Part shown: positions 7,398 through 22,234 of the stretch, one piece after another
Layout: each line of letters starts with the position of its first letter
Numbering within the stretch: position 1 is the stretch's first letter
From: Pseudomonadota bacterium
GTDB taxonomy: Bacteria; Bdellovibrionota_B; Oligoflexia; Oligoflexales; CAIYRB01
DNA length: 47,412 nucleotides
NCBI GenBank assembly: GCA_031416315.1
Contig: JANOTL010000016.1
Span: 1-47,412, forward strand
Direction of reading: 5' to 3'
Notes under the pieces: model-generated
Seen by the model: only the letters and a program-made list of their open reading frames with translations
What the model was told of the DNA's origin: nothing
Databases searched by the model: none
Program-made: the position numbers and the translations under genes

Positions 7398-8792
7398 TTA
7401 CGGCGCGCTCGCGCTCAAAGTCGCCTTGGCCCTAGCGAGCGCGTCGCGCACGCTCGCGGGGGCGGTCCCGCCCAGGACCCGGCGCGCCGCGAGGACGGCC
7501 TCGAGCGTCGTCGCCTCGGCCGCGCCGGAGAGCGAGGGGTGGAAGGCGGCGTAGTCCTCTTCACTCAATGTTTCAAGGTCTTTGCCGACCCGTAGGGCCA
7601 TCAGGACGAGCTCACCGGTGAGCGTATGCGCTTCCCGGAAAGGCATGCCGGTGCGCACGAGGCGGTCGGCGATGTCGGTCGCGGCGAGGAAGCCTCTGCG
7701 CGCTTCGCGCTCGGCGCGATCGTAGTGGATCGTCAACGTGTCGATGACGCCCGCCATGATCGCAAGGCTAGCGCGCGTCGTCTCGACGGCGTCTAGGACG
7801 GTGGCTTTGTCTTCCTGGAGGTCCTTGTTGTAGCCGGAAGGGAGCCCCTTCATCAAACACAGCAGCGCCGTTTGATGGCCGACGAGGCGGGAAGCTTTGC
7901 CGCGGATCAGCTCGAGCGCGTCCGGGTTCTTCTTCTGCGGCATCAGCGACGATCCGGTCGAGTACGCGTCGGCCAAGCTGACGAAGCCAAACTCCTCGCT
8001 CGAGAAGAGGATCAAGTCCTCCGCGAGCCGCGACAGGTGCATCATGACGACCGCCAGCGTCTGCACGAGCTCGATGGCGAAGTCGCGATCGCTCGTCGCG
8101 TCCAGCGCGTTGCGCGTCGGCGCGGCGAAGCCCAGCGCGGTCGCAAGGCGCTCGCGGTCGATCGGATAGGCGGTGCCGGCGATCGCACCACTTCCGAGCG
8201 GGCAACGGTCCAAGCGCTCGAGACAGCCCGCGAGGCGCTCCGCGTCGCGTCCCAACATCTCGAAAAACGACAGAAATTGCTGAGCCCATAGCTGCGGCTG
8301 GGCGCGCTGCAAGTGCGTGTATCCGGGGAGCGCGTGGCTTTTGCTCGCCTCGGCTTTGGCGACGAGCGCGCGGCGCAGCGTCTGAAGACCGGTCGTGATC
8401 GCGGACGCCGCCGCCTTCAGGTGCAGGCGGAAATCCGTCGCGACCTGATCGTTGCGGCTACGGCCCGTGTGCAGTTTACCCGCGAGCGCCCCCACGTGGT
8501 GGCGCAGCTGCGATTCGACGTAGTCGTGCACGTCCTCGACGCCCTCGGCGATCGCCTTCGCCAGCCAATCGGGCGTCGCGCGCACGTGGGCGAGCACCGC
8601 GTCGAGACCGGCGGTCAACGCCGCGCCCTCGTCCGCGCTCAAGACGCCTGCGAACGTCAGCTCTTGGGCCCAAGCCTTGCTGCCAAAGACGTCGGCTTCG
8701 ATCAACGCCGCATCGACCGGAAGCGAGTTGTTGAAGCGCGCGAACTCGGCGTCGGGTCCACCCTCGAAACGGCCGCCCCAGAGACTGCTCAT
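7398..8792 (-). CDS. argH: Argininosuccinate lyase
   Basis: LWGGRF start, LHTGRSRNDQ, GYTHLQRAQP, GSSLMPQKKNPD. True start ATG 8792 overlaps the argB stop. Confidence 0.97.
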   Translation of the reverse strand: MSSLWGGRFEGGPDAEFARFNNSLPVDAALIEADVFGSKAWAQELTFAGVLSADEGAALTAGLDAVLAHVRATPDWLAKAIAEGVEDVHDYVESQLRHHVGALAGKLHTGRSRNDQVATDFRLHLKAAASAITTGLQTLRRALVAKAEASKSHALPGYTHLQRAQPQLWAQQFLSFFEMLGRDAERLAGCLERLDRCPLGSGAIAGTAYPIDRERLATALGFAAPTRNALDATSDRDFAIELVQTLAVVMMHLSRLAEDLILFSSEEFGFVSLADAYSTGSSLMPQKKNPDALELIRGKASRLVGHQTALLCLMKGLPSGYNKDLQEDKATVLDAVETTRASLAIMAGVIDTLTIHYDRAEREARRGFLAATDIADRLVRTGMPFREAHTLTGELVLMALRVGKDLETLSEEDYAAFHPSLSGAAEATTLEAVLAARRVLGGTAPASVRDALARAKATLSASAP

Positions 8793-9619
8793 GCGTGCAC
8801 CTCGAATGCTTTGCGGGTGATGGTCGTGCCGGCACCGGCCTTGGAGAAAGCCGCCGCGAGCGCCTGCGGCTTGCGGCCGTCGATGAGCTGCACCTTGTCC
8901 ACGCCGCGCTCCAGTGCCGCGAGGACGCCAGCCAGCTTCGGCAGCATGCCGGCGGTGGCGGCGCCGCTCGCAAGGAGGCGCCGGCAGCCGGCCAAATCGA
9001 GCTGCGGCACGAGCGTCGCCTCGTCTTTGGGGTCGAGGTAGACGCCCGTGGTGTCGGAAAGGCTTACGATGCGCTCCGCATGCAGTAGAATGGCGAGCTC
9101 GCTCGCGATCGTGTCGGCGTTGACGTTGAGCACGACGCCGTCGTCGTCGGCGCAAAGCGAGCTGAGCACCGGCACGGAGCCCCGCGCCACGAGCATCTCG
9201 ATCAAGCTCGGATCATCGCCGCGGACGTCGCCGACGAAGCCCCAGTCGATGGTCTCGCCTTCCGGCGTCACCGTCTCCGGCCGCCGCTTGGCGCGAAACG
9301 TGCGGCCGTCGACGCCGGACAGGCCGACCGCGCTGAGGCCGCGCGCGCGGAGCGCCGCGGTGAGGCGCATGTTGACGGCGCCGCCGAGGGTCATCATCGC
9401 CAGCTCGAGCGTACGCGCGCAGGTGATCCTTCGGCCGAAAGCCGTATGCTGCGGCACGTCGAGACGCGCCGCGAGCTCGTCGAGCTGGCGACCGCCGCCG
9501 TGGACCACGACCATGCGTCGACCTTGCGCGTGGAGTTGCGCGAGGTCTTCGGCGACGGAGGCCAAGGCCGCGCCCGAATCGCAGATCTTGCCGCTCAGCT
9601 TGACGACGACGAGGCTCAT
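8789..9619 (-). CDS. argB: N-acylglutamate kinase
   Basis: VVHGGG, GRRIT, LNVNADT, GMLPKL amino-acid kinase motifs; ATG 9619 overlaps the argF' stop. Confidence 0.93.
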   Translation of the reverse strand: MSLVVVKLSGKICDSGAALASVAEDLAQLHAQGRRMVVVHGGGRQLDELAARLDVPQHTAFGRRITCARTLELAMMTLGGAVNMRLTAALRARGLSAVGLSGVDGRTFRAKRRPETVTPEGETIDWGFVGDVRGDDPSLIEMLVARGSVPVLSSLCADDDGVVLNVNADTIASELAILLHAERIVSLSDTTGVYLDPKDEATLVPQLDLAGCRRLLASGAATAGMLPKLAGVLAALERGVDKVQLIDGRKPQALAAAFSKAGAGTTITRKAFEVHA

Positions 9620-10686
9620 TTGGCGGCGCCTTTGGCGAAAATGAGGGAAAGAAGCGCTTTCTGCGCGTGCAGGCGGTTCGCCGCTTGCTGCACCACGCGG
9701 GAGCGCGGACCGTCGAGGACGCCGTCGGCGACGACGACGTTGCGACGGGTCGGGAGACAATGCATGAAGACGCCGCTTTGCGCGGTGCGCTCCATGCTGG
9801 CCTCGCTCACCATCCAGTCCTTCAAGAACGAGCGCAACGCAAGGTCGGCACCGGCGTTGCCGTACAGCTTCGGCGAGGACCAGCTCTTCGCGTAAACGAC
9901 GTGCGCGCCGTCGTGCGCTTCCGCGTGGCGATCGCGGAGCCGCACTTTGCCGCCCGATTTGGCGGCGGCGGCCTCGATTCCCGAGAGCATCTCGGGGGGC
10001 AGCATGTACTCCTCCGGTGCCGCGATCGTGAGATCGGCGCCGCACTGCGCCGCCGCGAGCGCGAACGAATGCGGCACGGCCAATGGCAAGGCCTTCGGAT
10101 GATTCGCCCACACGAGGCTCAGCTTCTTGCCGCGCACATCGCCGAAGAGCTCCTGTACGGTGAGCATGTCGGCCAGAGCCTGGCAGGGATGCTCGGTTGC
10201 CGACTCGAGATTCACCAGCGGTTTTCCGGCGAATTTGTCCCAGGCACCGAGCACGGGCTCTTCCAGGTCCTCGGCGAGCGAGCGGAAGCCGGCGAAGCAG
10301 CGGACGCCGATCGCGGCGCCGTAAGCGCCCAGGACTGGCGCGGCCTCGCGCACGTGCTCGGCGGCGACGCCGTCCATGACGACGCCGTCGCGCAGCTCGA
10401 TGCCCCAAACGCCGCCGCCGGCGCCGATGTCCATGGGCAGGGGCAGGCCGCCTAGCTGATGCACGGCGACCGCCATCGAGGCGCGCGTGCGCAGCGAAGG
10501 ATTGAAGAAGACGAGCGGCATCGCGAGCCCTTGCATCACCGGCTGCGACGGGATGGCCCCCGATTTCAGCGCAGCGGCGTAGCGCAGGAACGCGGCGAAG
10601 GCCTCGGTGCCGAGCGCCTTCGTCGAAAGGAACGAGCGCCCGGCGATCGTCGCGGTCAAAAGCGCGAGATCTTGCGTCTGGGTCAT
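9616..10686 (-). CDS. argF: N-acyl-L-ornithine carbamoyltransferase (ArgF'), residues favour the N-succinyl type
   Basis: FFNPSLRTR, MDGVAAEH, HPCQ, HPKALP, HCLPTRRN: the AOTCase/SOTCase subfamily, not canonical OTCase (STRT / SMG). Confidence 0.92.
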   Translation of the reverse strand: MTQTQDLALLTATIAGRSFLSTKALGTEAFAAFLRYAAALKSGAIPSQPVMQGLAMPLVFFNPSLRTRASMAVAVHQLGGLPLPMDIGAGGGVWGIELRDGVVMDGVAAEHVREAAPVLGAYGAAIGVRCFAGFRSLAEDLEEPVLGAWDKFAGKPLVNLESATEHPCQALADMLTVQELFGDVRGKKLSLVWANHPKALPLAVPHSFALAAAQCGADLTIAAPEEYMLPPEMLSGIEAAAAKSGGKVRLRDRHAEAHDGAHVVYAKSWSSPKLYGNAGADLALRSFLKDWMVSEASMERTAQSGVFMHCLPTRRNVVVADGVLDGPRSRVVQQAANRLHAQKALLSLIFAKGAAK

Positions 10687-10688
10687 GG

Positions 10689-11867
10689 TCAAAGCTCCGA
10701 GCTCAAGGCGACCGCGGCCGCGAGGAAATGCTCGACGTCCCCCGGGGCGAGGGCGAGCGGCGGCAAGAGCCGCATGACGTGGGGATCCGAGGAGGTGCCG
10801 GTCAAGATGCCGCGGGCAAGGAATGCTTTTTGCGCCCGTTTCGCCGGGATGGTCGTGCGCAGGCCGAGCAGAAGGCCGGTGCCGCGCACCGCTTCTACCC
10901 AGGGCAACTCGCAAAGGACGGCGCGCAGGCGAGCGCCGCAGACTTGCGCCAATTCCGGCAGCTTCTCGTCGCGCATGACCTGAACGGTCGCGAGTAGGGC
11001 GGCGCACGCGAGCGGGCCCCCGCCGAAGGTCGAACCGAGGTCGCCGACCGCCAGATGAGCCGAGGTCTTGCGGCTCATCAGCACCGCGGCGATCGGGACG
11101 CCGGAGCCGAGCGCCTTGCCGAGGGTGACGAGATCCGGGACGACGCCGTGGTTGCCCGAGTAGAACCATGTGCCCGTGCGCCCGAGGCCGGTTTGCACCT
11201 CGTCGTAAATCAGGAAGCTGGCATGGGTCTGCGTCAAGGCGCGGAGCCCGACATAGAACTCGGGCGCGGCCTCGACGATGCCCGCCATGCTCTGGATCGG
11301 CTCGAGCAGGACCGCCGCGACGTCGCCCGCGGCGAACGCGGCGCGGACCGCCTCGAGGTCGCCGAACGGCAGGATGTCGTGGAAAGGGACGGCGGGGGCC
11401 GCCATGGCACGGTAGCGCTCGATGCCGCATGCGGAAAGCGCCGCGGCCGTCCGGCCGTGGAAGCCGCCTTCGAACGAAAGGATGCGGCGCTTGCCGCTGA
11501 TCTTGCGGGCGATGCGCATCGCCGCCTCGTTCGCCTCGCTGCCGGAGTTGACGAAGAAGACCTGCTCCATGCCTTCGGGCGCGATGCCGATCAACGCCTC
11601 GGCGGCGCGGGCGCGCGTCTCGTTGTAAACGAGGTTCGAGTAGAAGAGGAGCTCCCCGGCCTGCTTTCTGATCGCTTCGACGACGCGCGGATGGCAATGA
11701 CCGGTGGCCGTGACCGCGTGGCCACCGTAGAAATCGAGGAACTCGCCGCCACCGACGGTCTCGAGCCACGCGCCGCTGCCGCGGGCGGCCGCGAGCGGGA
11801 AACGTTCGTACGTCGGCGCTTGAAAGCGATCCTCGAGCGCGGCGAGTTGAGCAAATGCGTCGTTCAA
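10689..11867 (-). CDS. argD: N-acylornithine aminotransferase (class III PLP)
   Basis: NSGSEANEAA, FHGRT, DEVQTGLGRTG, PDLVTLGKALG. TTG start at 11867 overlaps the argC stop. Confidence 0.92.
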   Translation of the reverse strand: MNDAFAQLAALEDRFQAPTYERFPLAAARGSGAWLETVGGGEFLDFYGGHAVTATGHCHPRVVEAIRKQAGELLFYSNLVYNETRARAAEALIGIAPEGMEQVFFVNSGSEANEAAMRIARKISGKRRILSFEGGFHGRTAAALSACGIERYRAMAAPAVPFHDILPFGDLEAVRAAFAAGDVAAVLLEPIQSMAGIVEAAPEFYVGLRALTQTHASFLIYDEVQTGLGRTGTWFYSGNHGVVPDLVTLGKALGSGVPIAAVLMSRKTSAHLAVGDLGSTFGGGPLACAALLATVQVMRDEKLPELAQVCGARLRAVLCELPWVEAVRGTGLLLGLRTTIPAKRAQKAFLARGILTGTSSDPHVMRLLPPLALAPGDVEHFLAAAVALSSEL

Positions 11868-12847
11868 GCTGGGAAGCCTCCCCAATGCGCGAGGCCTTCG
11901 GTCTCCGGCAGACCGAAGCTCAGGTTCAGGCACTGCACCGCTTGGCCGGCGGCGCCTTTCATCAGGTTGTCCAGGGCGACGAACACCGCGAGGCGACGCC
12001 CCCGGCGCGCCCAGCCGACGTCGGCGAAATTCGACTGGGCCACCCAGGCGACGTCGGGAGAGCCGTCGACCAGGCGCACGAAAGGCTTGCCGCGAAAGCT
12101 TCCCGCGAAAGCCGTGGCGATCTCCTCGTCGGAAGTCGCCGCCGGGATCTGAACGTAGATCGAGGCGAAGATGCCGCGCACGAGCGGGGTCGCGTGCGTC
12201 TGCAGCGACAGCTCGCCGTCCCACGCCGGCGCCACGCGACGGAGCGTCGCGAGGATCTCCGCCTCGTGCTGATGCTGAAGCAGCTTGTACGCGAAGAATC
12301 CGTGCGCACGCTCCGGATGATGCGTCGATTTCCCCGGCGAGGCGCCGGCGCCCGAAGAGCCCGTTTTCGCGTCGACGATCACGTCGCCTAGGAGGAGCCC
12401 CGCGCGCGCCAAAGGATAGAGTCCAAGCTGAATCGCGGTCGCGAAGCAGCCGGGGGCGGCGATTCGCGTTGCGCCGGCCAGCCATTCGCTGTTCACCTCG
12501 GGGAGACCGTAGATCCAGCCGGCGTCGGCGCGGTGGTCGGCGCCGAGGTCGACGACGGTGACGCGCGCCGGCACGCGGCCGACGAGCCTTTGGCTCTCCC
12601 CGTGGGGCAAGGCGAAAAAGACGGCGTCGAGCGCCTCCCACGCGGGAGCGCCGGCCTCGGGAATCTTCTCGATCGTGAGCGCCGACGCCGCCCGCAGGTG
12701 CGGGTGGGCGGCGGCCAATGGCCGGCCGTCGCCCGAGCGCGTGGCGGTCAGCGTCAGCTCGATTTTTGGGTGCGCGAGGAGAAGCCTCGTCAGCTCAGCG
12801 CCACCGTAGCCGGTGACGCCGACGATGCCGGCGCGATGCCTTTGCAT
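11864..12847 (-). CDS. argC: N-acyl-gamma-glutamyl-phosphate reductase
   Basis: GVTGYGG, IYGLPE, APGCFATA, SGAG, LDNLMKGAAGQAVQ. Start 12847 fits the GAGG spacing (alternative 12853). Confidence 0.95.
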   Translation of the reverse strand: MQRHRAGIVGVTGYGGAELTRLLLAHPKIELTLTATRSGDGRPLAAAHPHLRAASALTIEKIPEAGAPAWEALDAVFFALPHGESQRLVGRVPARVTVVDLGADHRADAGWIYGLPEVNSEWLAGATRIAAPGCFATAIQLGLYPLARAGLLLGDVIVDAKTGSSGAGASPGKSTHHPERAHGFFAYKLLQHQHEAEILATLRRVAPAWDGELSLQTHATPLVRGIFASIYVQIPAATSDEEIATAFAGSFRGKPFVRLVDGSPDVAWVAQSNFADVGWARRGRRLAVFVALDNLMKGAAGQAVQCLNLSFGLPETEGLAHWGGFPA

Positions 12848-13905
12848 TGCCATACCTCGATTTTTTCGGTGATCAGGTCGAAAAGTTTCTGGCCCGCGAG
12901 CGCGGCGTTGGCCGCGGGGATGCCGATGCGCGCCTCGACGAAGCGCATCGCCTCGAGGCTGTCAGTCGTCGGACCGGAGATGACGTCGATGGTGACGCCC
13001 CGGGTCTCGAGGTAGGCGGCCGCGCCCCAAGCCCCGACGAAGTCGTTGGCGCAGACGACGATCGCCGCGGTCGCCGCCATCAGGGCCGGGTCGTCGAAAA
13101 GCGGCTCGACGTTGTATTCGCCGAGAAGCCCGTCGCCGAGCTCGACGACGATGACGTCGGGAGCCTCCTCCTGAAGGGTGGAGATGATGGTGCGCGCAAC
13201 GGCCGCCATGTCGGGGACGTCGACCGTCGACGGCAGCCCGCAGTCGTGGAAGCTCATGGTCGCGATCGCGCCATGATCCTCCATGAGCAGAAGGTCGCGC
13301 TTGCAGGCGACGCCGGTGAGCTTCGCCGCGGCGACCCGCTTCCCGCCCGCCGCGAAGCGCCGGATGATCTCGGCGGCGGCGCTGGTCTTCCCTGCGTGCA
13401 TGCAGGTGCCGCCGATCAGGACGAGCGGCACGTGCGGCGAGAACATCGCGGGCGTTGCGGGTGCGTTTTGCGACAGGTTCGCGATCTGGCCGTTCATGAG
13501 CACGCTGCCGACGTAGGTGCCGCCGAGCGGCATCGGCAACCCGCGCTGGCGCCCGCGCAGCTCGCCCATGACGCCGCCGAGGTTCAGAATCGCCAGCTCG
13601 TCGCCGACGGCGAGGTGCGCCGGCACGTCGCCGACGAAGCCTTTGAGCGCGCGCCTTTGGCCGAGGACGCCGACGACGAGGTCGCCGACGCGTACGGCCG
13701 CCATGCGGCCGTTGGGCAGCTCGACGACGCTTTGGCCGCTGGCATCGGTCACGCGCAAAAGGACGAGGTCGCCCGATCGCGGCACGCGCGGCTCCGCGGA
13801 AAGGGACAGGAATGGCGCGGTGAGCACCGTTCCCGCCACGGAGGCGATTTTGTCGGCCCTGAGGAGCAGGGACTGCGCGTCAGTGATGGTCAGGGGGGAC
13901 GCCAT
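12790..13905 (-). CDS. DUF1611-like / BioD-superfamily P-loop protein of unknown function inside the arg operon
   Basis: GGTCMHAGKT P-loop, AAKLTG, DCGLPST, VVELGDG. AGGAGG RBS; overlaps both argG and argC. Confidence 0.8.
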   Translation of the reverse strand: MASPLTITDAQSLLLRADKIASVAGTVLTAPFLSLSAEPRVPRSGDLVLLRVTDASGQSVVELPNGRMAAVRVGDLVVGVLGQRRALKGFVGDVPAHLAVGDELAILNLGGVMGELRGRQRGLPMPLGGTYVGSVLMNGQIANLSQNAPATPAMFSPHVPLVLIGGTCMHAGKTSAAAEIIRRFAAGGKRVAAAKLTGVACKRDLLLMEDHGAIATMSFHDCGLPSTVDVPDMAAVARTIISTLQEEAPDVIVVELGDGLLGEYNVEPLFDDPALMAATAAIVVCANDFVGAWGAAAYLETRGVTIDVISGPTTDSLEAMRFVEARIGIPAANAALAGQKLFDLITEKIEVWQCKGIAPASSASPATVALS

Positions 13906-15115
13906 GGAAGGTGCCTCCTTGGAGCTGCGCGCCGGATTTCAGGCGCAAGGCGGTGAGCTCGATGAACCCGGTCGCTTTCGACTGGTCGTAGACCTCGTCC
14001 TTCTCGAAGGTGGCGAGGGCCGGCGAGAAGAGGCTGAGCGGCGATTTGCGCCCGAGTACCTGGACGCCGCCTTTGTAGAGCTCGAGGCGGACGGTGCCGG
14101 TGACGTTTTTCTGCGTCGCCTGCACGAGGGCCATGACCGCCGCAAACTCCGGCGAGAACCAAAAGCCGTTGTAGATGAGGCCGGCGATGCGGGTCTGCAG
14201 CGAGTCCTTCAACTGCATCGCCTCGCGGTCCATGGTGATCGTCTCCAACGCGCGATGCGCCGCGTGCAGTACGGTTCCCGCAGGCGTCTCGTAAACGCCG
14301 CGCGACTTGATGCCGACGTACCGGTTCTCCACTAGGTCGATGCGGCCGACGCCATGTTTTCCGGCCCGGGCGTTGAGCGTCTCGAAGAGGGCGACGCCTT
14401 GGAGCCGCAGCCCGTCGACGGCGACGGGAAGGCCGGCCGCGAACTCGATCGTCAGCACTTCGCCGGTTTCGGGCGCGGTCTTCGGATCAGCGGTGAGGAG
14501 GCGCATGTCGGGCGGCGGCGCCGCCCACGGATCCTCGAGCACGCCGCCTTCGAAGCTGCAGTGCATTAGGTTGCGGTCGATCGAGTACGGCTTCTCCAGC
14601 GTGGCGCTGACGGGGATCGCGTATTCCTTCGCGTAGGCGATCAGCTCGCTTCTGCCGCGAAAGGGCCAGGTGCGCCAGGGGGCGAGCACCGTGAGCTCCG
14701 GCGCGAGCGCGGCGAACGCGAGCTCGAAGCGGACTTGGTCGTTGCCTTTGCCGGTGGCGCCGTGCGCGACGGCGTCGGCCCCCGTGCGGCGGGCGATCTC
14801 GACCTGACGGCGCGCGATCACGGGCCGCGCCAGCGCGGTGCCGAGCAGGTATTGGCGCTCGTAGACGGCGCCTGCCTGGATCGCCGGCAGAAGGAACTCG
14901 CCCACGAGCTCTTCGCGCAGATCCTCGATGAAGACCTCGCTGGCGCCGGTGGCGAGCGCTTTCTCCCGCAAGCCGTGGAGCTCCTCGGCCTGGCCGACGT
15001 CGGCACAGTAGGCGACGATCTCCGAGCCGTACTCGCGCTTCAGCCAATGCACCATCACGGAGGTGTCGAGACCACCCGAGTACGCGACGACGATTTTTTT
15101 CGGAGCTTTCTGCAT
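13880..15115 (-). CDS. argG: Argininosuccinate synthase
   Basis: AYSGGLDTS, HGATGKGNDQVRF, SIDRNLMH, KSRGVYETP. ATG 15115 follows GGAGG. Confidence 0.97.
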   Translation of the reverse strand: MQKAPKKIVVAYSGGLDTSVMVHWLKREYGSEIVAYCADVGQAEELHGLREKALATGASEVFIEDLREELVGEFLLPAIQAGAVYERQYLLGTALARPVIARRQVEIARRTGADAVAHGATGKGNDQVRFELAFAALAPELTVLAPWRTWPFRGRSELIAYAKEYAIPVSATLEKPYSIDRNLMHCSFEGGVLEDPWAAPPPDMRLLTADPKTAPETGEVLTIEFAAGLPVAVDGLRLQGVALFETLNARAGKHGVGRIDLVENRYVGIKSRGVYETPAGTVLHAAHRALETITMDREAMQLKDSLQTRIAGLIYNGFWFSPEFAAVMALVQATQKNVTGTVRLELYKGGVQVLGRKSPLSLFSPALATFEKDEVYDQSKATGFIELTALRLKSGAQLQGGTFHGVPPDHH

Positions 15116-15144: not shown

Positions 15145-15564
15145 TCAAAGGAGCTTGAAGATCCGTTTCACGACCGAGGCCTGGTCTTTCTTCGAGGCGA
15201 TGGCGACGAAGATGGTGTCGATGCCGGCGATGGTCCCGAGCAGCCCAGGGATGGCGGCGTTGTCGATCGCGAAGGCCAAGGAGTCGGCGACGCCGGGGCC
15301 GGTGCGCAGCACGATCAGGTTGTCGCCAGCGAGCAGGGCGTCGACGCGCACCCGATCCTCCCCGGCGACGCTGAGCTCAGGCAGCCGGTACTCGCCGTCG
15401 ACCTTCACCACCGCGAGGCGCTTGAGGTCGCGGGAGACGCTCGACTGCGTCGTCTCGTAGCCGGCGGCGGCCAGGGCCGCCTGGATCTCGTCCTGAGACT
15501 TGAGGCCGCCCTTTTTCAGGAGAGCAGTCAAAGCGTCGAGCCGATCTTGGTCGACGGAGCTCAT
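15145..15564 (-). CDS. argR: Arginine repressor
   Basis: SQDEI...[10 protein letters not shown] winged helix and GTIAGIDT arginine-binding motif. Confidence 0.93.
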
Positions 15565-15578
15565 AATTTCGGCCTCAC

Positions 15579-15628
15579 TTGCATTTTATGCGTATGACCC
15601 GCATAATTGCAAGGTCTATGCGCATAGA
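15579..15628 (-). promoter_or_regulatory. arg operon promoter with ARG-box-like palindromes
   Basis: Minus strand TTGCAA-18 bp-TAAAAT upstream of argR. Overlapping inverted repeat TTGCATTTTATGCG/CGCATAATTGCAA and perfect palindrome TCTATGCGCATAGA (15615-15628) in an AT-rich patch. Confidence 0.6.
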
Positions 15629-16056
15629 TATCACATTGCGGTTGGGACGCAAGGGCTAACTGGAGCGCCGTCGTCGGTTTATAGACAAATTCTGTTTACA
15701 CCGGCCGCGCCAACGCATGCGGCCACGCGGCGTCGCGGCCAAGGACTTGCCCTCCTCCAAGGCGCGGCCGGGCGCGCCGGATTCGTCGCGACCCGGCAAC
15801 TATCCTGGATGACGGCGAAATCCAGGCAGAAGCGCGGCGCCGCCCCGCGAGGTGAAATCGCGCTGGCGGAACGGGCCAAAATTCATGCGGTGCGGGCAGC
15901 GCGCTTTTTCCTGAGCACGCAAGACGCCGATCTCGAAGTCGATTCGGTCGACTTTCACTTTTCGCTCAACTCCTCGCGAAACCGGACCGAGTCCCCCTTT
16001 GTGAATTTCGTGGCTCACCCGCCACAAAAGGCCGCCAACAAACTCTAGAGGACCCC

Positions 16057-17205
16057 ATGATGAAGACCGCACTCAGCACGAAGGTAGCGATCACGCTCGC
16101 AACCTACGCCCTGGCGGCTTCGAGCACTGCGTACGCTGGTTCCCGTGACCAAGCCTTCCGCATGCACAGCCGCTTGGCTGGCGTGCCGCCGACGGCCGCA
16201 GTGCTCGACCAGATGGAAACCCTGATCAACGACGGCAAACTCGAGGACGCCGCGAAGATCGCCATGACCAGCCCCTACTTCTACAACCTGACGCTGAAGA
16301 ACTGGGTCGCTCCCTGGACGAACGAGGACGAATCGGTCCGCGTCGGCCTCAACGACTACTCGGCTACGATCATCGGCATGATCCGGGACGACGTGCCGTT
16401 CAACGAGGTGCTCTCGGGCGACTTCATTTACACCGGCAAAGCCGGCCTCGCCAACGTTCCCGTTTACGCCGCGAACAACAACCTGCACTACGCGGCGCTC
16501 GAGGCCCAGAACATCGACCTGATGGCGAACCTAGAGAAGAAGAGCCAGGTCGGCGTCACCGGCGTCGAGGAGATCGCGGGCGTCATGACCACGCGGGGTT
16601 GGGGCTCCTCCTTCTTCTTCGACGGCACCAACCGCGCCTCGGTCCGCTTCTCCCTGATGACCTACATCTGCAACGACCTCGAGCAACTCGCCGACACCAC
16701 GATCCCCGACTTCCGCGTGCGCCGCGACGTCGACCGCGCTCCGGGCGGCGACTCCTCGGTCTTCCGCAACAAGTGCGCCGGCTGCCACGCCGGTCAGGAC
16801 GGGTTCGGCGGCGCCTTCGCCCACTACGACTTCGTCAACGACGCCGTCGTCTACGACAAGACCAAGGTCCAAGAGAAGATGAACAAGAACAACACGACCT
16901 TTCCGGACGGCTACGTCGTCACCGACGACGGCTGGGTCAACATGTGGCTCACCGGGCAGAACGCCCGCATCGGCTGGAACGGCGAGGCCGCCGGCAACGG
17001 CGCGAACTCCTACGGCAAGATGCTGACCGCGACCGAGGAGTTCCCGGTGTGCATGGCGAAGCGCGTCAAGAGCGTCGTCTGCATGCAGCCGCTGAAGGAC
17101 ATCCGCAACGAAGACGTGTCGATGGCCGCCGACGATTTCAAGGGCGACAACTACAACATGAAAAACCTCTTCGCTCGCACGGCCGCTTCGTGCGCCGGCG
17201 AATGA
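16057..17205 (+). CDS. Exported monoheme c-type protein of unknown function (reminiscent of PSD/DUF1585-type modules)
   Basis: GAGGA RBS, signal peptide ending AYA, RMHSRLAGVPP, CAGCH heme motif, GTNR..R...ICND, strong GC3 codon bias. Confidence 0.8.
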   Translation: MMKTALSTKVAITLATYALAASSTAYAGSRDQAFRMHSRLAGVPPTAAVLDQMETLINDGKLEDAAKIAMTSPYFYNLTLKNWVAPWTNEDESVRVGLNDYSATIIGMIRDDVPFNEVLSGDFIYTGKAGLANVPVYAANNNLHYAALEAQNIDLMANLEKKSQVGVTGVEEIAGVMTTRGWGSSFFFDGTNRASVRFSLMTYICNDLEQLADTTIPDFRVRRDVDRAPGGDSSVFRNKCAGCHAGQDGFGGAFAHYDFVNDAVVYDKTKVQEKMNKNNTTFPDGYVVTDDGWVNMWLTGQNARIGWNGEAAGNGANSYGKMLTATEEFPVCMAKRVKSVVCMQPLKDIRNEDVSMAADDFKGDNYNMKNLFARTAASCAGE

Positions 17206-17228
17206 ACAAGAGAGCGAGGAACCACCCG

Positions 17229-18029
17229 ATGAGCACTACGACCAAATTATTCGCTCTCGCCGCCGCTGCCGCCCTTTACGGCTGCTCGAACGACGACTCC
17301 ACCAACCTGCGCTCGGCCCGCGTCTCGCCCAAGGCTCGCCACGCCGACGCGGTTGTCGCCGAAGGCCAGACCAAAGACCTCGACGTGGGCGCGAAGGACG
17401 AAAAGCAGCAGATCCCGCAGGACACGGCGCACCAAGTCGACCCGACGCCGACGGTCACGGGCACCGGCGATTCCCCGGGCACCGCTTCGCCGGCCGCCCC
17501 CGTGATTCCGGCAGAGAAGCCCGAGGAAGTCTGGAACCCGGCCGTCGGCATGCGCAACTTCCGCCAGATCAACGACGTCATGTCGGTCCTGACCGGCGTC
17601 CCGCGCACCAACGCGAACGTCACGGCGGCCTTCGCGCTCCTCGAGACCGCGCTTCCCGACTCGAACGACATCCGCACCTTCAACGGCTCGCACCAAGTCG
17701 CGATCTCCAAGCTCGCGGTCGAGTACTGTGACGCGATGGTCGAAGATCCGGCGCTCTCCGCCCTCGCCATCCCGGGCTTCAACTTCGCCGCTCTGCCGAA
17801 CGTGGCCTTCGACGCCGCCGGCAAGGCGACCGTCGGCAAGGCGCTCGTCGCGAAGTTCTGGGGCTCCGGTCTGGACTCGCTGCCGCCCGAGGCCGAGCTC
17901 GTCGAGACCTTGTCCGACCTGATCGACGCGGTCGTGGCCGGCAAGGCGAACACGGCAGTGATCACGAAGAACGTCGTCAAGGGTGTTTGCGTGTCGCTCT
18001 TGGCGTCGAGCCAGGTCCTGCTCTACTGA
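17229..18029 (+). CDS. Lipoprotein of unknown function
   Basis: Lipobox LYGC, Pro/Thr linker, helical domain RNFRQIN...KLAVEYC...VCVSLLAS. Start moved from 16599 to ATG 17229. Confidence 0.75.
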   Translation: MSTTTKLFALAAAAALYGCSNDDSTNLRSARVSPKARHADAVVAEGQTKDLDVGAKDEKQQIPQDTAHQVDPTPTVTGTGDSPGTASPAAPVIPAEKPEEVWNPAVGMRNFRQINDVMSVLTGVPRTNANVTAAFALLETALPDSNDIRTFNGSHQVAISKLAVEYCDAMVEDPALSALAIPGFNFAALPNVAFDAAGKATVGKALVAKFWGSGLDSLPPEAELVETLSDLIDAVVAGKANTAVITKNVVKGVCVSLLASSQVLLY

Positions 18030-18091
18030 ACCGGATTCGAACCCACTGAACTAATCTCATCTTGTTTATACGTCTTAGAGGAGCTTCGCAC

Positions 18092-19603
18092 ATGGGTATC
18101 TTCAAGCGCAAGGGCGAGCAGAACACGCCCGAAAACACGCCCTTCCTGCACACCAACCACCGCCGCCCGATGACGCGTCGCGAGCTGATCGGCCAGGGCT
18201 TTCTCGCCAGCACCGGCGCGGTCTTGATGCCGAGCCTCCTCTCTAGCCTCTGGTCGCAGCAAGCCTTGGCGCGCGATCTGGTCTGCGCGGCGGCCGGCGG
18301 CGGCGGCAGCAAGTTCGTCCCATTCATCGTCTTCGACCTGGCCGGCGGCGGCAACATCCCCGGCTCCAACGTCATGGTCGGCAAGCGCGGCGGCCAGGAA
18401 GATTTCCTGACCAGCTACAGCTCGCTGGGCCTCCCCGAGACGATGAATCCCGGCAAGGTCGCGGGCCAGACCAACAGCGAGTACGGCCTCCTCTTCCACA
18501 CCGACAGCGCCATCCTCCGCGGCATGAACACGGCGACGGTCGCCGGCACCCGCGCCCAGGTGGACGGCATGGTGTTCGCCACCTCGTCCAACGACGACAC
18601 CGGCAACAACCCGCACAACCCGGCCTACTGGATCGTCAAAGCCGGCGCAGGCGGCGAGCTCGTTCAACTCGCGGGCACGCGCTCCACGCCTTCGGGCGGC
18701 AACGCGCTCTCGCCGGCCGACTCGATCAATCCTGGCGCGCGTCCGGTCGTCATCAATAAGCCCTCCGACGTCCTCGGCTTGGTCAACCCGGGCAAGCTCG
18801 CACAGCTCCTCTCCGGCGCCGACGTCGAGAAGATCCTGAAGGCGGCCTCCGGCATGAGCGGCTCGAAGCTCGCCAAGTTCAACGAGAAGGACCTGCGCCA
18901 GCAACTGAAAGACTTGGTCGAGTGCGGCTACCTCAACGGCGGCGACCTCGTCGCGAAGTCGGCGAACGCCGGCCTCCTCGACCCATCGCAGGACGCCGAC
19001 ATCACCAGCGTGTTTACAGCGCTCGCGACGAACGCCGACGAGCAGCGCACGGCCTCGATCGCGAAGCTGGTCCTCGAAGGCAAGGCCGGCGCCGGCACGA
19101 TCACGATGGCGGGTTTCGACTACCATGACGGCTCCCGCGCCACCGGCGAGGTGCTCGACCAGAGGCTCGGCCGCCTCATCGGCCAGGTCCTCGAGGTCGC
19201 GGCGAAGAAGCAGACCGACGTCATGATCTACGTCTTCACGGACGGCGGCGTGACCAGCAACGGCCAAGCCGACAACAGCGCCAACGGCCGCGGCAAAGGC
19301 GGCTGGCAAGCGGACTCCGGCCAACGCTCCGCCGCCTTCTCGCTCGTTTACAATAAGGACGCCGGCAAGCGCCCGCCGCTGATGAAAGAGGGTCGCCGTC
19401 AGATCGGCGCGTTCAAGGACACCGGCGGCGTCGACGAGGACGTGAACAAGGCCTCGGGCTCGGTCGACGTGCTGTCGCGCGCCGTCGTCGCCAACTACCT
19501 CGCCCTGCACGGCATGGAGACGAAGCTGGCGGAAGTGACCGGCAGCGACCCTTTCGGCAAAGATCTCTCGACCGAGTACCTCGCCCTGACCAAGCTGCGC
19601 TAA
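18092..19603 (+). CDS. Tat-exported DUF1501/DUF1552-like protein
   Basis: GAGGAG RBS, MTRRELIG twin-arginine motif, FDLAGGGN, GFDYHDG, YVFTDGG, which resemble alkaline-phosphatase-superfamily-like DUF1501 motifs. Confidence 0.7.
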   Translation: MGIFKRKGEQNTPENTPFLHTNHRRPMTRRELIGQGFLASTGAVLMPSLLSSLWSQQALARDLVCAAAGGGGSKFVPFIVFDLAGGGNIPGSNVMVGKRGGQEDFLTSYSSLGLPETMNPGKVAGQTNSEYGLLFHTDSAILRGMNTATVAGTRAQVDGMVFATSSNDDTGNNPHNPAYWIVKAGAGGELVQLAGTRSTPSGGNALSPADSINPGARPVVINKPSDVLGLVNPGKLAQLLSGADVEKILKAASGMSGSKLAKFNEKDLRQQLKDLVECGYLNGGDLVAKSANAGLLDPSQDADITSVFTALATNADEQRTASIAKLVLEGKAGAGTITMAGFDYHDGSRATGEVLDQRLGRLIGQVLEVAAKKQTDVMIYVFTDGGVTSNGQADNSANGRGKGGWQADSGQRSAAFSLVYNKDAGKRPPLMKEGRRQIGAFKDTGGVDEDVNKASGSVDVLSRAVVANYLALHGMETKLAEVTGSDPFGKDLSTEYLALTKLR

Positions 19604-19619
19604 TCTACTAGAGGCTTTC

Positions 19620-21074
19620 GTGATGATGCGCGAACTTTTCCTGATTTTCTCCGTCACCGGTGCGCTCGCCGCGACTGCTTGCGGCGGCGTCGACCCGAAA
19701 GACGGCGGCGGCGCCTTCAAGAAGCCGTTCGCCGCCGACGCGGTGGCGAAGCCGAACGGCTTCGACGAGGATGATCCTGCAGCGACCGGCGGCGTGCCGG
19801 GCGGTGATGGCGCAGCCGACGCGAACGGCGGCGCGGCCGGGCCGAATGGCGGCGGCGCAGACGGCGGCGGCGGGACCGGGGCGGCCCCGGTCACGCCTTC
19901 GGAGCCGGTGCCTCCGACCCTCGTCGAGGCGTTCCGGACGACGGTCTTCCCCGTCCTCCGCGCGAACTGCAAGGGTTGCCACGAGCGGGTCCAGACGCCT
20001 TTCTTCGCGTCCCTGACGCCGGAAGCTGCGCTCCAGGCGATCCAGGACACCGGCAAGGTCAACTTCGAAGAGATCGAGAACTCGCGCATCGTGAAGCGCC
20101 TCGTCGGCGACAACCACAACTGTTGGTCGGAGTGCCCGACCGACGCCGAGACCATGCGCCTCGCCATCCAAACGTGGAAGGACCTGGTCAAGAAGGAAGA
20201 CGAAAAGCCGAAGATCGAGACGAGCGTGCTCCTCATGGAGCAATCGGTGGAGCGCGACAAAGCGACTGACCCCGCGACCATGGCGGCTGAAGCCGAGCTC
20301 GGCACGCTCACCGCGCCGATGGTGATGTCGACCAACACCAACGCGTCGGCCTCCGGAGTGATCTCGGTGCCGGCCGTCGGCGGCGCGGCGGCGATCAACA
20401 ACCCGAACACCGCGAACATCGGCAGCGTCGTCTACACCTTCGACGTGAAGACGGCGGGAACGTACTCGGTCTTCGGCCTGGTGAACGCGCCGACGGCAGC
20501 CGCGAACCGCTTTTTCGTCCGCATCGACGCCGGGGCCTTCACGACCTGGACGATCACGATGAACGCCGACAAGTTCGTCTGGACGCGCGTCCAGAGCGGC
20601 GCGGCGGCGCCGGTTCCCTTGACGGCGGTGCTCACGGCCGGCACCCATACGGTGGAGGTGCGGCGCTCGCGCCCCGGCACGAATTTGGACATGATCGCGC
20701 TCACCTCGAACGCGAACTTCGACGGCTCGCAGGCGGTGCTCGGGAAGATCAAGGTTCTGCGCTACGACCTTTCGACGCTCCTCAACTCGCCGGGCGTCTT
20801 CTTCGAGATCGAGATGGAGGACTTCAGCGAAGGCGCCTACAAATTCCGGAATCCGCGGATCGTCTCGCCCACCGTAAAGGTGCGCGCCAAGGGCATCCGA
20901 GTGCAGGTGAATGGCACGTACGACCCGCAGCACAACACGTACAATTTCGTGGACAAGACGGTCGCGGCGCCAGGTGATCTGCTGTCGCCTGCCGCGATGG
21001 TGGTGATCAAGGACCAGGGCGCCGAGACGGACCAGATCACCTTCACGTTCGACGCGCTCGAGGTGGTGCCGTGA
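19620..21074 (+). CDS. Lipoprotein: cytochrome c domain plus carbohydrate-binding-like beta-sandwich
   Basis: Lipobox ATAC, Gly-rich linker, CKGCH, HNCWSEC, then AAEAE...AGTYSVFG...LTAGTHTVEV...LDMIAL (CBM6/35-like). Confidence 0.75.
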   Translation: MMMRELFLIFSVTGALAATACGGVDPKDGGGAFKKPFAADAVAKPNGFDEDDPAATGGVPGGDGAADANGGAAGPNGGGADGGGGTGAAPVTPSEPVPPTLVEAFRTTVFPVLRANCKGCHERVQTPFFASLTPEAALQAIQDTGKVNFEEIENSRIVKRLVGDNHNCWSECPTDAETMRLAIQTWKDLVKKEDEKPKIETSVLLMEQSVERDKATDPATMAAEAELGTLTAPMVMSTNTNASASGVISVPAVGGAAAINNPNTANIGSVVYTFDVKTAGTYSVFGLVNAPTAAANRFFVRIDAGAFTTWTITMNADKFVWTRVQSGAAAPVPLTAVLTAGTHTVEVRRSRPGTNLDMIALTSNANFDGSQAVLGKIKVLRYDLSTLLNSPGVFFEIEMEDFSEGAYKFRNPRIVSPTVKVRAKGIRVQVNGTYDPQHNTYNFVDKTVAAPGDLLSPAAMVVIKDQGAETDQITFTFDALEVVP

Positions 21075-22234
21075 GATTCTTAGCGCTCGTCCTCGCCGGA
21101 GCTTTCGCGGCCGCTTGCGGCGCGGAAGAGCCGAAGACGGCGCACACCAGCCGCAAGTCGAGCGACGCCTCTGGCGCGGCTCCCGCAGCGCCAGCGCCGG
21201 GTCCGACGCCGGTTCTGGCCGGGAAGAACCCGGGAACGGGCGCCGTCGCGCCGACTCCGGCACCGGGCGAAGCCCCGGCGCCTGCGCCTGCCCCCGCGCC
21301 GGCGACGCCGGCACCCGCGCCGACGCCGACCGGTCCCGCGGCGGAGACCGGCAAAGATTTCTTCACGCGCGTGATCTCGCCCTTGTTCGACGCGCAGTGC
21401 ACGACTTGCCACGCGGATCCGCGGGAGATGCCCGACATTCGCGGGCCGCTGACGATCTTCTCCTACGGCACGATGAAGAAATATCTCGTAGACGGCACCT
21501 CCGCGGCCGACAACGGCATGATCCGCAAGATGCGCGCGCTCGTGGCGCATGCGGGAAGCGACCGCTGCCGCGAGAAGGGGCCGGCGGCGACGCCTTGCAA
21601 GGAAGTCATGGAGTGGTGGCGGCTCGAGCTCGGCGCGGATTCGGGCCTGGTCGGGAAGCTAGTACAGGTAACGGCGCTAGGCGACGTCTCGGGGTACGCG
21701 GTCGCGAGCGACGACGTGGCCGAGGTCTTGAGCGTCGAGCTGCACGTGGATGTTGGCGTCGACGGGCCCGCGGCGATGACGCCGGTGTTGACGCTCACGG
21801 CGGATCAGGCCGGGGAGGACGCGGGATATGAGGGGCAGCATGCGTTTCGCGGGTCTTTGCCGGCGGAGTTACGGGACGGTAAAGAGCGCGATCTCACGGC
21901 GTGGGTGGAGAAGGACGGGAAGCTCTTGCAGCTGGGGGCTAAAGTGCGTTTTGCGGCGTACGCGCCGAAGGATGCCGGGAAGACTTACTATCAGAATACG
22001 GTGATGCCCGCATTGCAGGGTCGCTGTGGGTCGTGCCACTTGGTGTCGTACGAGCAGCATTACGGCTCGTTGATCAACAAGGCGCCGTTTCAGGGCGGAA
22101 CCGCGATGGACAACGAGTTGATCAATCGGGCGGCGGGCGGGGATGCGCACCCGGGTGGGAACATTTGTGGCGGTAAAGCGGGAACGCCCTGTAATTTGCT
22201 GCAGCAGTGGTGGGGACTGGAGTTTGGGCCGTAA
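21071..22234 (+). CDS. Diheme c-type lipoprotein with a duplicated heme domain
   Basis: Lipobox AAAC, Pro-Ala linker, CTTCH and CGSCH in two similar domains; GTGA overlap with the previous gene. Confidence 0.8.
   Translation: MRFLALVLAGAFAAACGAEEPKTAHTSRKSSDASGAAPAAPAPGPTPVLAGKNPGTGAVAPTPAPGEAPAPAPAPAPATPAPAPTPTGPAAETGKDFFTRVISPLFDAQCTTCHADPREMPDIRGPLTIFSYGTMKKYLVDGTSAADNGMIRKMRALVAHAGSDRCREKGPAATPCKEVMEWWRLELGADSGLVGKLVQVTALGDVSGYAVASDDVAEVLSVELHVDVGVDGPAAMTPVLTLTADQAGEDAGYEGQHAFRGSLPAELRDGKERDLTAWVEKDGKLLQLGAKVRFAAYAPKDAGKTYYQNTVMPALQGRCGSCHLVSYEQHYGSLINKAPFQGGTAMDNELINRAAGGDAHPGGNICGGKAGTPCNLLQQWWGLEFGP

Follow-up and report, generated by a model that had tools for sequence, protein, structure and literature searches.

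A P-loop protein encoded within an arginine operon as a predicted replacement of ArgA

Gene X in the arg operon of the window

Contig JANOTL010000016.1 (assembly GCA_031416315.1), of which a stretch of 47,412 nucleotides was analysed (hereafter the window), carries an arginine biosynthesis operon in the order argR-G-X-C-D-F'-B-H, in which the neighbours of X were assigned by Pfam and NCBIfam. Gene X is an open reading frame (ORF) at positions 12790-13905 on the reverse strand, and its product is predicted to replace ArgA in the first, N-acylating step of arginine synthesis. An earlier note made from the sequence of the same DNA (the original prediction) had described X as a 371-residue ORF with its own AGGAGG ribosome-binding site, embedded in an arg operon lacking argA and argJ, and had proposed that it makes N-acyl-L-glutamate, either as an acyl-coenzyme A (CoA) transferase or as an ATP-dependent ligase. 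The coordinates were confirmed, X overlapping argG (which ends at 13880) by 26 bp and argC (ATG at 12847) by 58 bp, and so were the gene order and the presence in X of GTCMHAGKT (residues 166-174), AAKLTG (with K195) and VVELGDG (with E255). The absence of argA and argJ extends to the whole genome (93.3% complete), in which no match was found to ArgJ (PF01960) or NAT (PF04768) and none to ArgA over the TIGR01890 cut-off; of its 25 GNAT matches four were scanned, all of which scored far under any ArgA cut-off. The gene argE is also missing from the cluster.

Table 1. Features of gene X, of the arg operon in the window, and of an unlinked amidohydrolase gene of the same genome.
Feature	Position	Strand	Remarks
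Gene X, predicted N-succinyl-L-glutamate-forming enzyme (ArgA replacement)	12790..13905	-	371 aa, ATG start
Ribosome-binding site AGGAGG of X, within argG 3' end	13914..13919	-	8 nt ahead of ATG
N-terminal beta-rich domain of X, about residues 13-150	13456..13869	-	structure model
C-terminal P-loop domain of X, residues 156-354	12844..13440	-	BioD/CTP-synthase amidoligase/DUF1611 fold
Walker A loop G166-T174	13384..13410	-	GTCMHAGKT
K195	13321..13323	-	aligned to second (signature) lysine of BioD
D204	13294..13296	-	invariant acid, within one residue of BioD aspartate in alignment
E255	13141..13143	-	aligned to glutamate of BioD VEGAGG motif
argR, arginine repressor	15145..15564	-	Pfam/NCBIfam
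argG, argininosuccinate synthase	13880..15115	-	Pfam/NCBIfam
argC	11864..12847	-	Pfam/NCBIfam
argD, N-acylornithine aminotransferase	10689..11867	-	TTG start taken from sequence
argF', N-acylornithine transcarbamylase	9616..10686	-	predicted succinyl-specific
argB, N-acylglutamate kinase	8789..9619	-	stand-alone, without fused acyltransferase domain
argH, argininosuccinate lyase	7398..8792	-	464 aa, without fused ArgA domain
M20D amidohydrolase (L212)	G000 contig C211, 35429-36805		41% identical to one after argB in X cluster L302

The family of X

A protein-collection search covering lengths of 204-650 aa found 2633 homologues among 8000 scored candidates at E<=0.001, the best with 51% identity over 94%, and X is therefore a real gene. 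Its relatives form 476 clusters of a 50% library at E<=1e-30, and in the neighbourhood of a single clade the family already counts at least 7471 sequences; homologues that were named are hypothetical proteins of Oligoflexales, Blastocatellia, Gemmatimonadota, Planctomycetota, and Steroidobacteraceae. The NCBIfam scan gave no match and the Pfam scan only sub-threshold ones, including DUF1611 (PF07755) at 13.3 bits (cut-off 25; E=0.055). X itself matched none of the hidden Markov models of ArgA (TIGR01890, PF04768), ArgJ (PF01960), or the BioD families, and its context is arg rather than a biotin operon. Searches of the PDB with the single sequence or a narrow profile found nothing.

Linkage of X to arginine biosynthesis genes

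Across six sets of loci, argC comes after X in 210 of 228 (a total in which about 13 loci are counted twice); 16 of the remainder reach a contig edge within 500 bp and two differ. In the best 80 GTDB loci argG adjoins X in all 80 and argC in 78, and since nearly all of these were Blastocatellia, which have the order R-G-X-C-D-F'-B as in the window, the sample was widened. The exact order of the window, R-G-X-C-D-F'-B-H, was found in a Steroidobacteraceae-type clade, where 75 of 80 loci contain another arg gene and the remaining five are shorter than 2 kb. X is present in 11 of 40 relatives of the window genome, arranged as argR-X-argC-argD-argF'-argB, and a group of Acidobacteriota (L304-L308, L377-L379) has X-argC-argD-argB with no argF' nearby. 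The adjacency of X and argC persists even where argB has moved away (L309-L311, L365). A quick tree (57 rows) placed the arg-linked members in one clade, with a support of 94 in the Shimodaira-Hasegawa-like approximate likelihood ratio test (SH-aLRT), and left the X of the window unplaced.

Apparent fusions of X to arg enzymes were rejected, the long frames in G178, G244, G046, G188, and other genomes being GC-rich read-through with one arg match each. Among the Blastocatellia-type loci, 29 of 80 carry a family of 125-aa ORFs between argC and argD (e.g., L038:10157-10534), which look like proteins of the tRNA-binding/CsaA type. Three loci titled 'uncultured Clostridia' (L005, L017, L018) hold Blastocatellia-like arg genes, and in the tree L018 nests within Blastocatellia, so that the title is probably a matter of labelling or binning. 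Four relatives of the window genome (L232-L235; G035, G020, G026, G036) have argG-argH, two of them with argR, and no argB, argC, argD, or argF nearby, which suggests that they make arginine from imported citrulline.

Mutual exclusion of X and other first-step enzymes

In an even draw of 201 Acidobacteriota genomes, 60 matched the X family profile, 52 of them strongly (E<1e-100), and 51 contained ArgJ. Strong X and ArgJ were together in none, where about 13 genomes would be expected, and the overlap also remained 0 between 50 X and 50 ArgJ genomes when G068, G093, and G190 were left out; only two ArgJ genomes matched X at all, each through a weak sister homologue. ArgA exceeded its cut-off in one genome, which lacks X. 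The anti-correlation of X with argA and argJ, proposed in the original prediction as a check, was thus borne out in this phylum.

Genomes lacking X provided natural controls. G149 combines an ArgF' that has Glu at position 92 with an ArgB of the fused synthase-kinase type, and G022 has an argJ cluster. In G025, an ArgF' cluster contains argE and a gene presumed from its position to be GNAT-like, with no NCBIfam match; used as a query, this gene found no match in the window genome and none in the 201 Acidobacteriota genomes, a set that contained no positive control. ArgF' was present without X in four of 45 cases, namely G149, with its other type of synthase, G097, with a fragment of X only, and G219 and G216, where contigs break at the place where X would lie.

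The acyl group

In the ArgF' of the window, Ala109 (10360-10362) takes the place of the Glu92 found in the acetyl-specific enzyme, with MDGVAAEH compared to MDGDTEEH, and its best PDB match is an Ala mutant at position 92. According to S1B Text of PMC13759103, A, P, S or V at this position switches specificity to succinyl. Because of the alanine at this specificity position, the acyl group in the window operon is likely to be succinyl. Glu occurs at position 92 in none of the 135 ArgF' adjoining X, which come from sets of 64 (60 T and 4 A), 43 (all A), 9, 8, and 11, and is present in the X-less G149.

Fold and nucleotide site of X

In the structure model of X (predicted local distance difference test, pLDDT, 94.5), the C-terminal domain has a fold for which BioD (Z 15-16.7), the CTP-synthase amidoligase domain (Z 15-16.5), and DUF1611 proteins (2G0T, Z 16.9-17.1; 2OBN, 15.9-16.2) were tied at the top of the search, with root-mean-square deviations (rmsd) of ~3 over 175-200 aligned residues; DgcN (7XRJ) had Z 15.2 and an rmsd of 3.2 over 180. 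Foldseek ranked BioD first and GTPases of the signal recognition particle (SRP) next. A wide profile of the X family had BioD as its best PDB match, with the GKT, the second Lys, the Asp (within one residue), and the Glu of VE aligned. In BioD, the Walker Thr, the Asp, and the Glu bind the Mg-nucleoside triphosphate (NTP), and the second Lys binds the phosphorylated intermediate; both BioD and the amidoligase domain of CTP synthase perform NTP-driven C-N bond formation via such an intermediate. A review describes the BioD P-loop (Gly8-Thr16), Lys37, and the homodimer (PMC8659263). K173, T174, K195, D204, and E255 are invariant in all 50 arg-linked members of the X family, and a wide alignment of 99 sequences has K173, K195, and E255, T/S at 174, and D/E at 204 throughout.

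The site differs in DUF1611. From 30 loci two were left out, and all 28 remaining proteins have GK[R/M] and Ile/Val at the position of K195; DgcN has GKM and Arg in the K195 register, and 2OBN (GKM) and 2G0T (GKR) both have Leu there. A profile-profile comparison matched the X family to DUF1611 with 94% probability over 93 columns. Judged by Pfam score and Walker motif, X is not a member of DUF1611/DgcN, since PF07755 stays under its cut-off and GKTS/KLTGV stands in place of GK[R/M]T/TGQ; X has kept the NTP-site residues that the transferase DgcN has lost. The likeness to BioD and DUF1611 claimed in the original prediction was upheld at the level of fold, the DUF1611 sequence match being weak.

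Within the N-terminal domain, S22 (50 of 50), E62, and R84 are invariant in the arg-linked members and K19 is frequent. Folded alone (pLDDT 93.1), this domain gave a best Z of 3.6, with no row at E<=0.001 and no DgcN/DUF1611 entry listed; it had no PDB sequence match and an Atlas score of 0.86 to an unnamed cluster. A serine nucleophile at S22 would be a thin lead. The best, non-significant rows (Z 3.0-3.6) were LexA/signal-peptidase barrels, a likeness that was dismissed as too weak to count as evidence.

Prior prediction for the family

The role is not new, contrary to the original prediction, which had called X a candidate new glutamate N-acylating enzyme. In GapMind 2026 (Price et al., PMC13759103), replacement of ArgA was predicted for ACG33_RS14135 of Steroidobacter, listed without experimental evidence, and the family was reported in 109 genera. 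The available text bases this on a Foldseek argument from DgcN, tests exclusion against ArgA only, and names no donor and no role for ATP. The plasmid insert of that study, read by eye, has GTCMEAGKT, KATGV, and ELGDG and fits the P0154/P0346 clade, and P0346 (Steroidobacteraceae) aligns to X with 38% identity over 309 aa (E 4e-53); by these two matches X and ACG33_RS14135 (A0A127FCT3) are assigned to the same family. Literature searches, with most subscription journals outside their scope, returned PMC13759103 and one unrelated listing when made by locus tag, by accession, or by names of ligases and synthetases, and nothing for DUF1611 with arginine biosynthesis. What the present analysis adds to PMC13759103 is the exclusion with ArgJ, the intact BioD-type site, the occurrence of X with ordinary ArgF, and the sister groups outside arginine synthesis.

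Predicted function of X and alternative explanations

Linkage, exclusion, and fold support the proposal that X replaces ArgA as the maker of N-acyl-L-glutamate, and with good confidence we assign to it the first-step N-acylation of arginine synthesis, whatever the chemistry. Of the two mechanisms in the original prediction, the conserved residues favour the ATP-dependent ligase, which ranks as more likely than the acyl-CoA transferase implied by DgcN because the BioD-type site is invariant in X and its Walker Thr and second Lys are missing in DgcN/DUF1611. That X is specifically an ATP-dependent succinate:glutamate ligase has, in our judgement, an even chance. Mg-ATP, or possibly another NTP, would bind at K173, T174, K195, D204, and E255; a carboxyl group of succinate would be phosphorylated to an enzyme-bound acyl phosphate (succinyl phosphate), and attack by the alpha-amino group of glutamate would yield N-succinyl-L-glutamate along with ADP and phosphate. 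The product would then be converted to N-succinylcitrulline by ArgB, ArgC, ArgD, and the succinyl-type ArgF', and citrulline, released from it by an unlinked amidohydrolase, would enter the ArgG and ArgH steps. We infer this chemistry; gene order, exclusion, model fold, and residue conservation were observed. X would then provide arginine biosynthesis with its first N-acylglutamate ligase that is driven by ATP and independent of CoA; in lineages without argE it may in addition exchange the acyl group from N-succinylcitrulline, as an analogue of ArgJ. To this combination we give slightly less than an even chance.

Several observations weigh against the ligase. The zero co-occurrence of X and ArgJ overstates their exclusion, because related genomes are not independent. 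The nearest fold row, 2G0T, belongs to DUF1611 (on a par with BioD), and PMC13759103 describes the one DUF1611 enzyme characterised so far as an acetyltransferase. The mapping of residues from X to BioD comes from a weak profile alignment (E 2e-5) and not from superposition, SRP GTPases and HypB also match the P-loop domain, and the P-loop residues could serve binding of the nucleotide part of CoA or a regulatory NTPase role. ArgF' does not always accompany X: its co-occurrence with argF', one of the checks proposed in the original prediction, is seen in the 135 adjoining genes, but 11 of the 52 X genomes have no ArgF' match. Five of these were tested and carry ordinary ArgF and PyrB only, with X-argC-argD-argB; in two of the five, ArgF adjoins genes that we read as catabolic. 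Succinyl may therefore not hold for the whole family. The window genome lacks an ArgE/DapE-type deacylase, its M20/M28 proteins being an M20D amidohydrolase (Table 1) and other types. This leaves a second gap, which the ligase model assigns to another enzyme; the M20D protein is a candidate N-succinylcitrulline desuccinylase or DapE substitute. Finally, the supplement of PMC13759103 lists plasmids carrying the Steroidobacter gene and E. coli argA, and no result for them was found there, a growth-curve file aside.

Of the eight weak full-length homologues in the Acidobacteriota draw, seven were examined; none of these lies near arg genes, and they fall outside the arg-linked clade. The non-arg sisters (L295-L301) form two groups that keep the same P-loop site. 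One adjoins CapA and ABC exporters, ATP-grasp ligases, or a peptidase of the M28 type, and the other flavin-reductase-like genes and an M20 peptidase; the contexts with CapA, ATP-grasp ligases, and M20/M28 peptidases belong to amide-bond metabolism and are in line with a ligase, but are suggestive only.

The reading implied by GapMind 2026, in which X is a DgcN-like succinyl-CoA or acetyl-CoA:L-glutamate N-acyltransferase, shares the evidence from linkage and exclusion and gains from the fold similarity, the profile-profile match to DUF1611 (94%), and the published Foldseek argument. It is considered rather unlikely, as the Walker Thr and second Lys invariant in X are absent from DgcN/DUF1611, the Pfam score of X is sub-threshold, and the N-terminal domain alone retrieved no DgcN/DUF1611 entry, although no row there reached significance (best Z 3.6). 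Because of the argE gap in the window genome and its order, it was also considered that X acts like ArgJ, with N-acylcitrulline or N-acylornithine donating the acyl group to glutamate, either through an acyl phosphate formed with ADP or through an acyl-enzyme at the invariant S22, and thus fills the gaps of both ArgA and ArgE. A full-length ArgE/DapE-type match (TIGR01910) was found in 0 of 12 X-bearing genomes of this order versus 6 of 29 others, an argE match with one query in 0 of 160 Blastocatellia and Steroidobacteraceae-type loci, and S. denitrificans is described as lacking both ArgA and ArgE (PMC13759103); the X-argC-argD-argB clusters also resemble argJ clusters. This role appears improbable, however, given that an ArgE-type gene is present in 11 of the 28 X clusters from other Acidobacteriota and an M20D amidohydrolase in a further one, that G042, which bears X, encodes elsewhere in its genome an ArgE scoring above the TIGR01892 cut-off, and that the M20D protein of the window genome is 41% identical to a cluster-linked one, an M20D-type replacement of ArgE having been reported (PMC13759103).

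Equally improbable is a role of X beside ArgC, as its accessory NTPase, partner or regulator, such as one that guards the labile acyl-glutamyl phosphate, with an unlinked GNAT protein making N-acylglutamate. The retention of X next to argC where argB has moved away, the fold shared with HypB, UreG, and SRP GTPases, and the 25 unassigned GNAT matches are compatible with it, but the exclusion with ArgJ and ArgA and the presence of synthases in X-less ArgF' clusters would be left unexplained. That X replaces only ArgE, as a deacylase, or is an unrelated passenger was given the least weight and is very improbable: argE is absent from this and many other clusters, yet the two genes stand together in the same 11 of 28, on which count a simple identification of X as ArgE was rejected, the argC linkage is nearly invariant, and X has no hydrolase fold. 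An alternative ArgB was set aside, as the cluster has an intact argB.

Since the X family has no name in Pfam and NCBIfam, automated reconstructions make its carriers appear auxotrophic for arginine. In view of the residue evidence, a correct role could still be missed in an assay that offers only acyl-CoA, or in a complementation test confined to E. coli argA. If X is a ligase, a textbook pathway would gain a new chemistry at its first step, and the wider family, whose N-terminal domain is uncharacterised, would gain a function; the route would serve many Acidobacteriota, Steroidobacteraceae, and other bacteria that are rarely cultured.

Surroundings and origin of the operon

The argG of the window is ~60-63% identical to that of Blastocatellia and only 42-47% to that of relatives in its own family, and the gene order likewise sides with Blastocatellia and Steroidobacteraceae-type loci and not with the relatives, on the basis of which the operon may have been acquired separately. 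Upstream of argR (15565-15640, -) lie a perfect 14-bp palindrome, a pair of 7-bp arms with a 7-bp loop, and an ARG-box-like 13-mer; the classic ARG-box spacing was not found there, the one near match having a 3-nt spacer. Together these elements form a possible ArgR operator. On the other side of argR, positions 16057-22234 (+) contain a run of secreted-looking or cytochrome-c-like genes with CxxCH motifs, which look DUF1592/DUF1501-like.

Comparison with known systems

The closest counterpart of X is the family of ACG33_RS14135, with which it shares the arg operon, the gene order, a genome without canonical ArgA, and one arg-linked clade; the A, P, S or V that characterises position 92 of the neighbouring ArgF' is Ala in the window. 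DgcN and DUF1611 resemble X in their C-terminal P-loop fold (Z 15.2-17.1), the GT-x4-GK start of the loop, and the glutamate at E255, and for DgcN, as described in PMC13759103, also in glutamate as acceptor, as predicted for X. They differ in having GK[R/M]T followed by TGQ, compared to GKTS and KLTGV; the search with the beta-rich N-terminal domain of X (best Z 3.6) listed none of the DUF1611 entries. ArgA of the GNAT type, fused ArgA-B, and ArgJ have no sequence or fold relation to X, but would make the same kind of product and are found where X would lie in clusters that lack it. BioD and the CTP-synthase amidoligase share with X the fold and the aligned P-loop Lys/Thr, second Lys, Asp, and Glu, whereas identity is 13-18% and X has an extra N-terminal domain and an arg-operon context.

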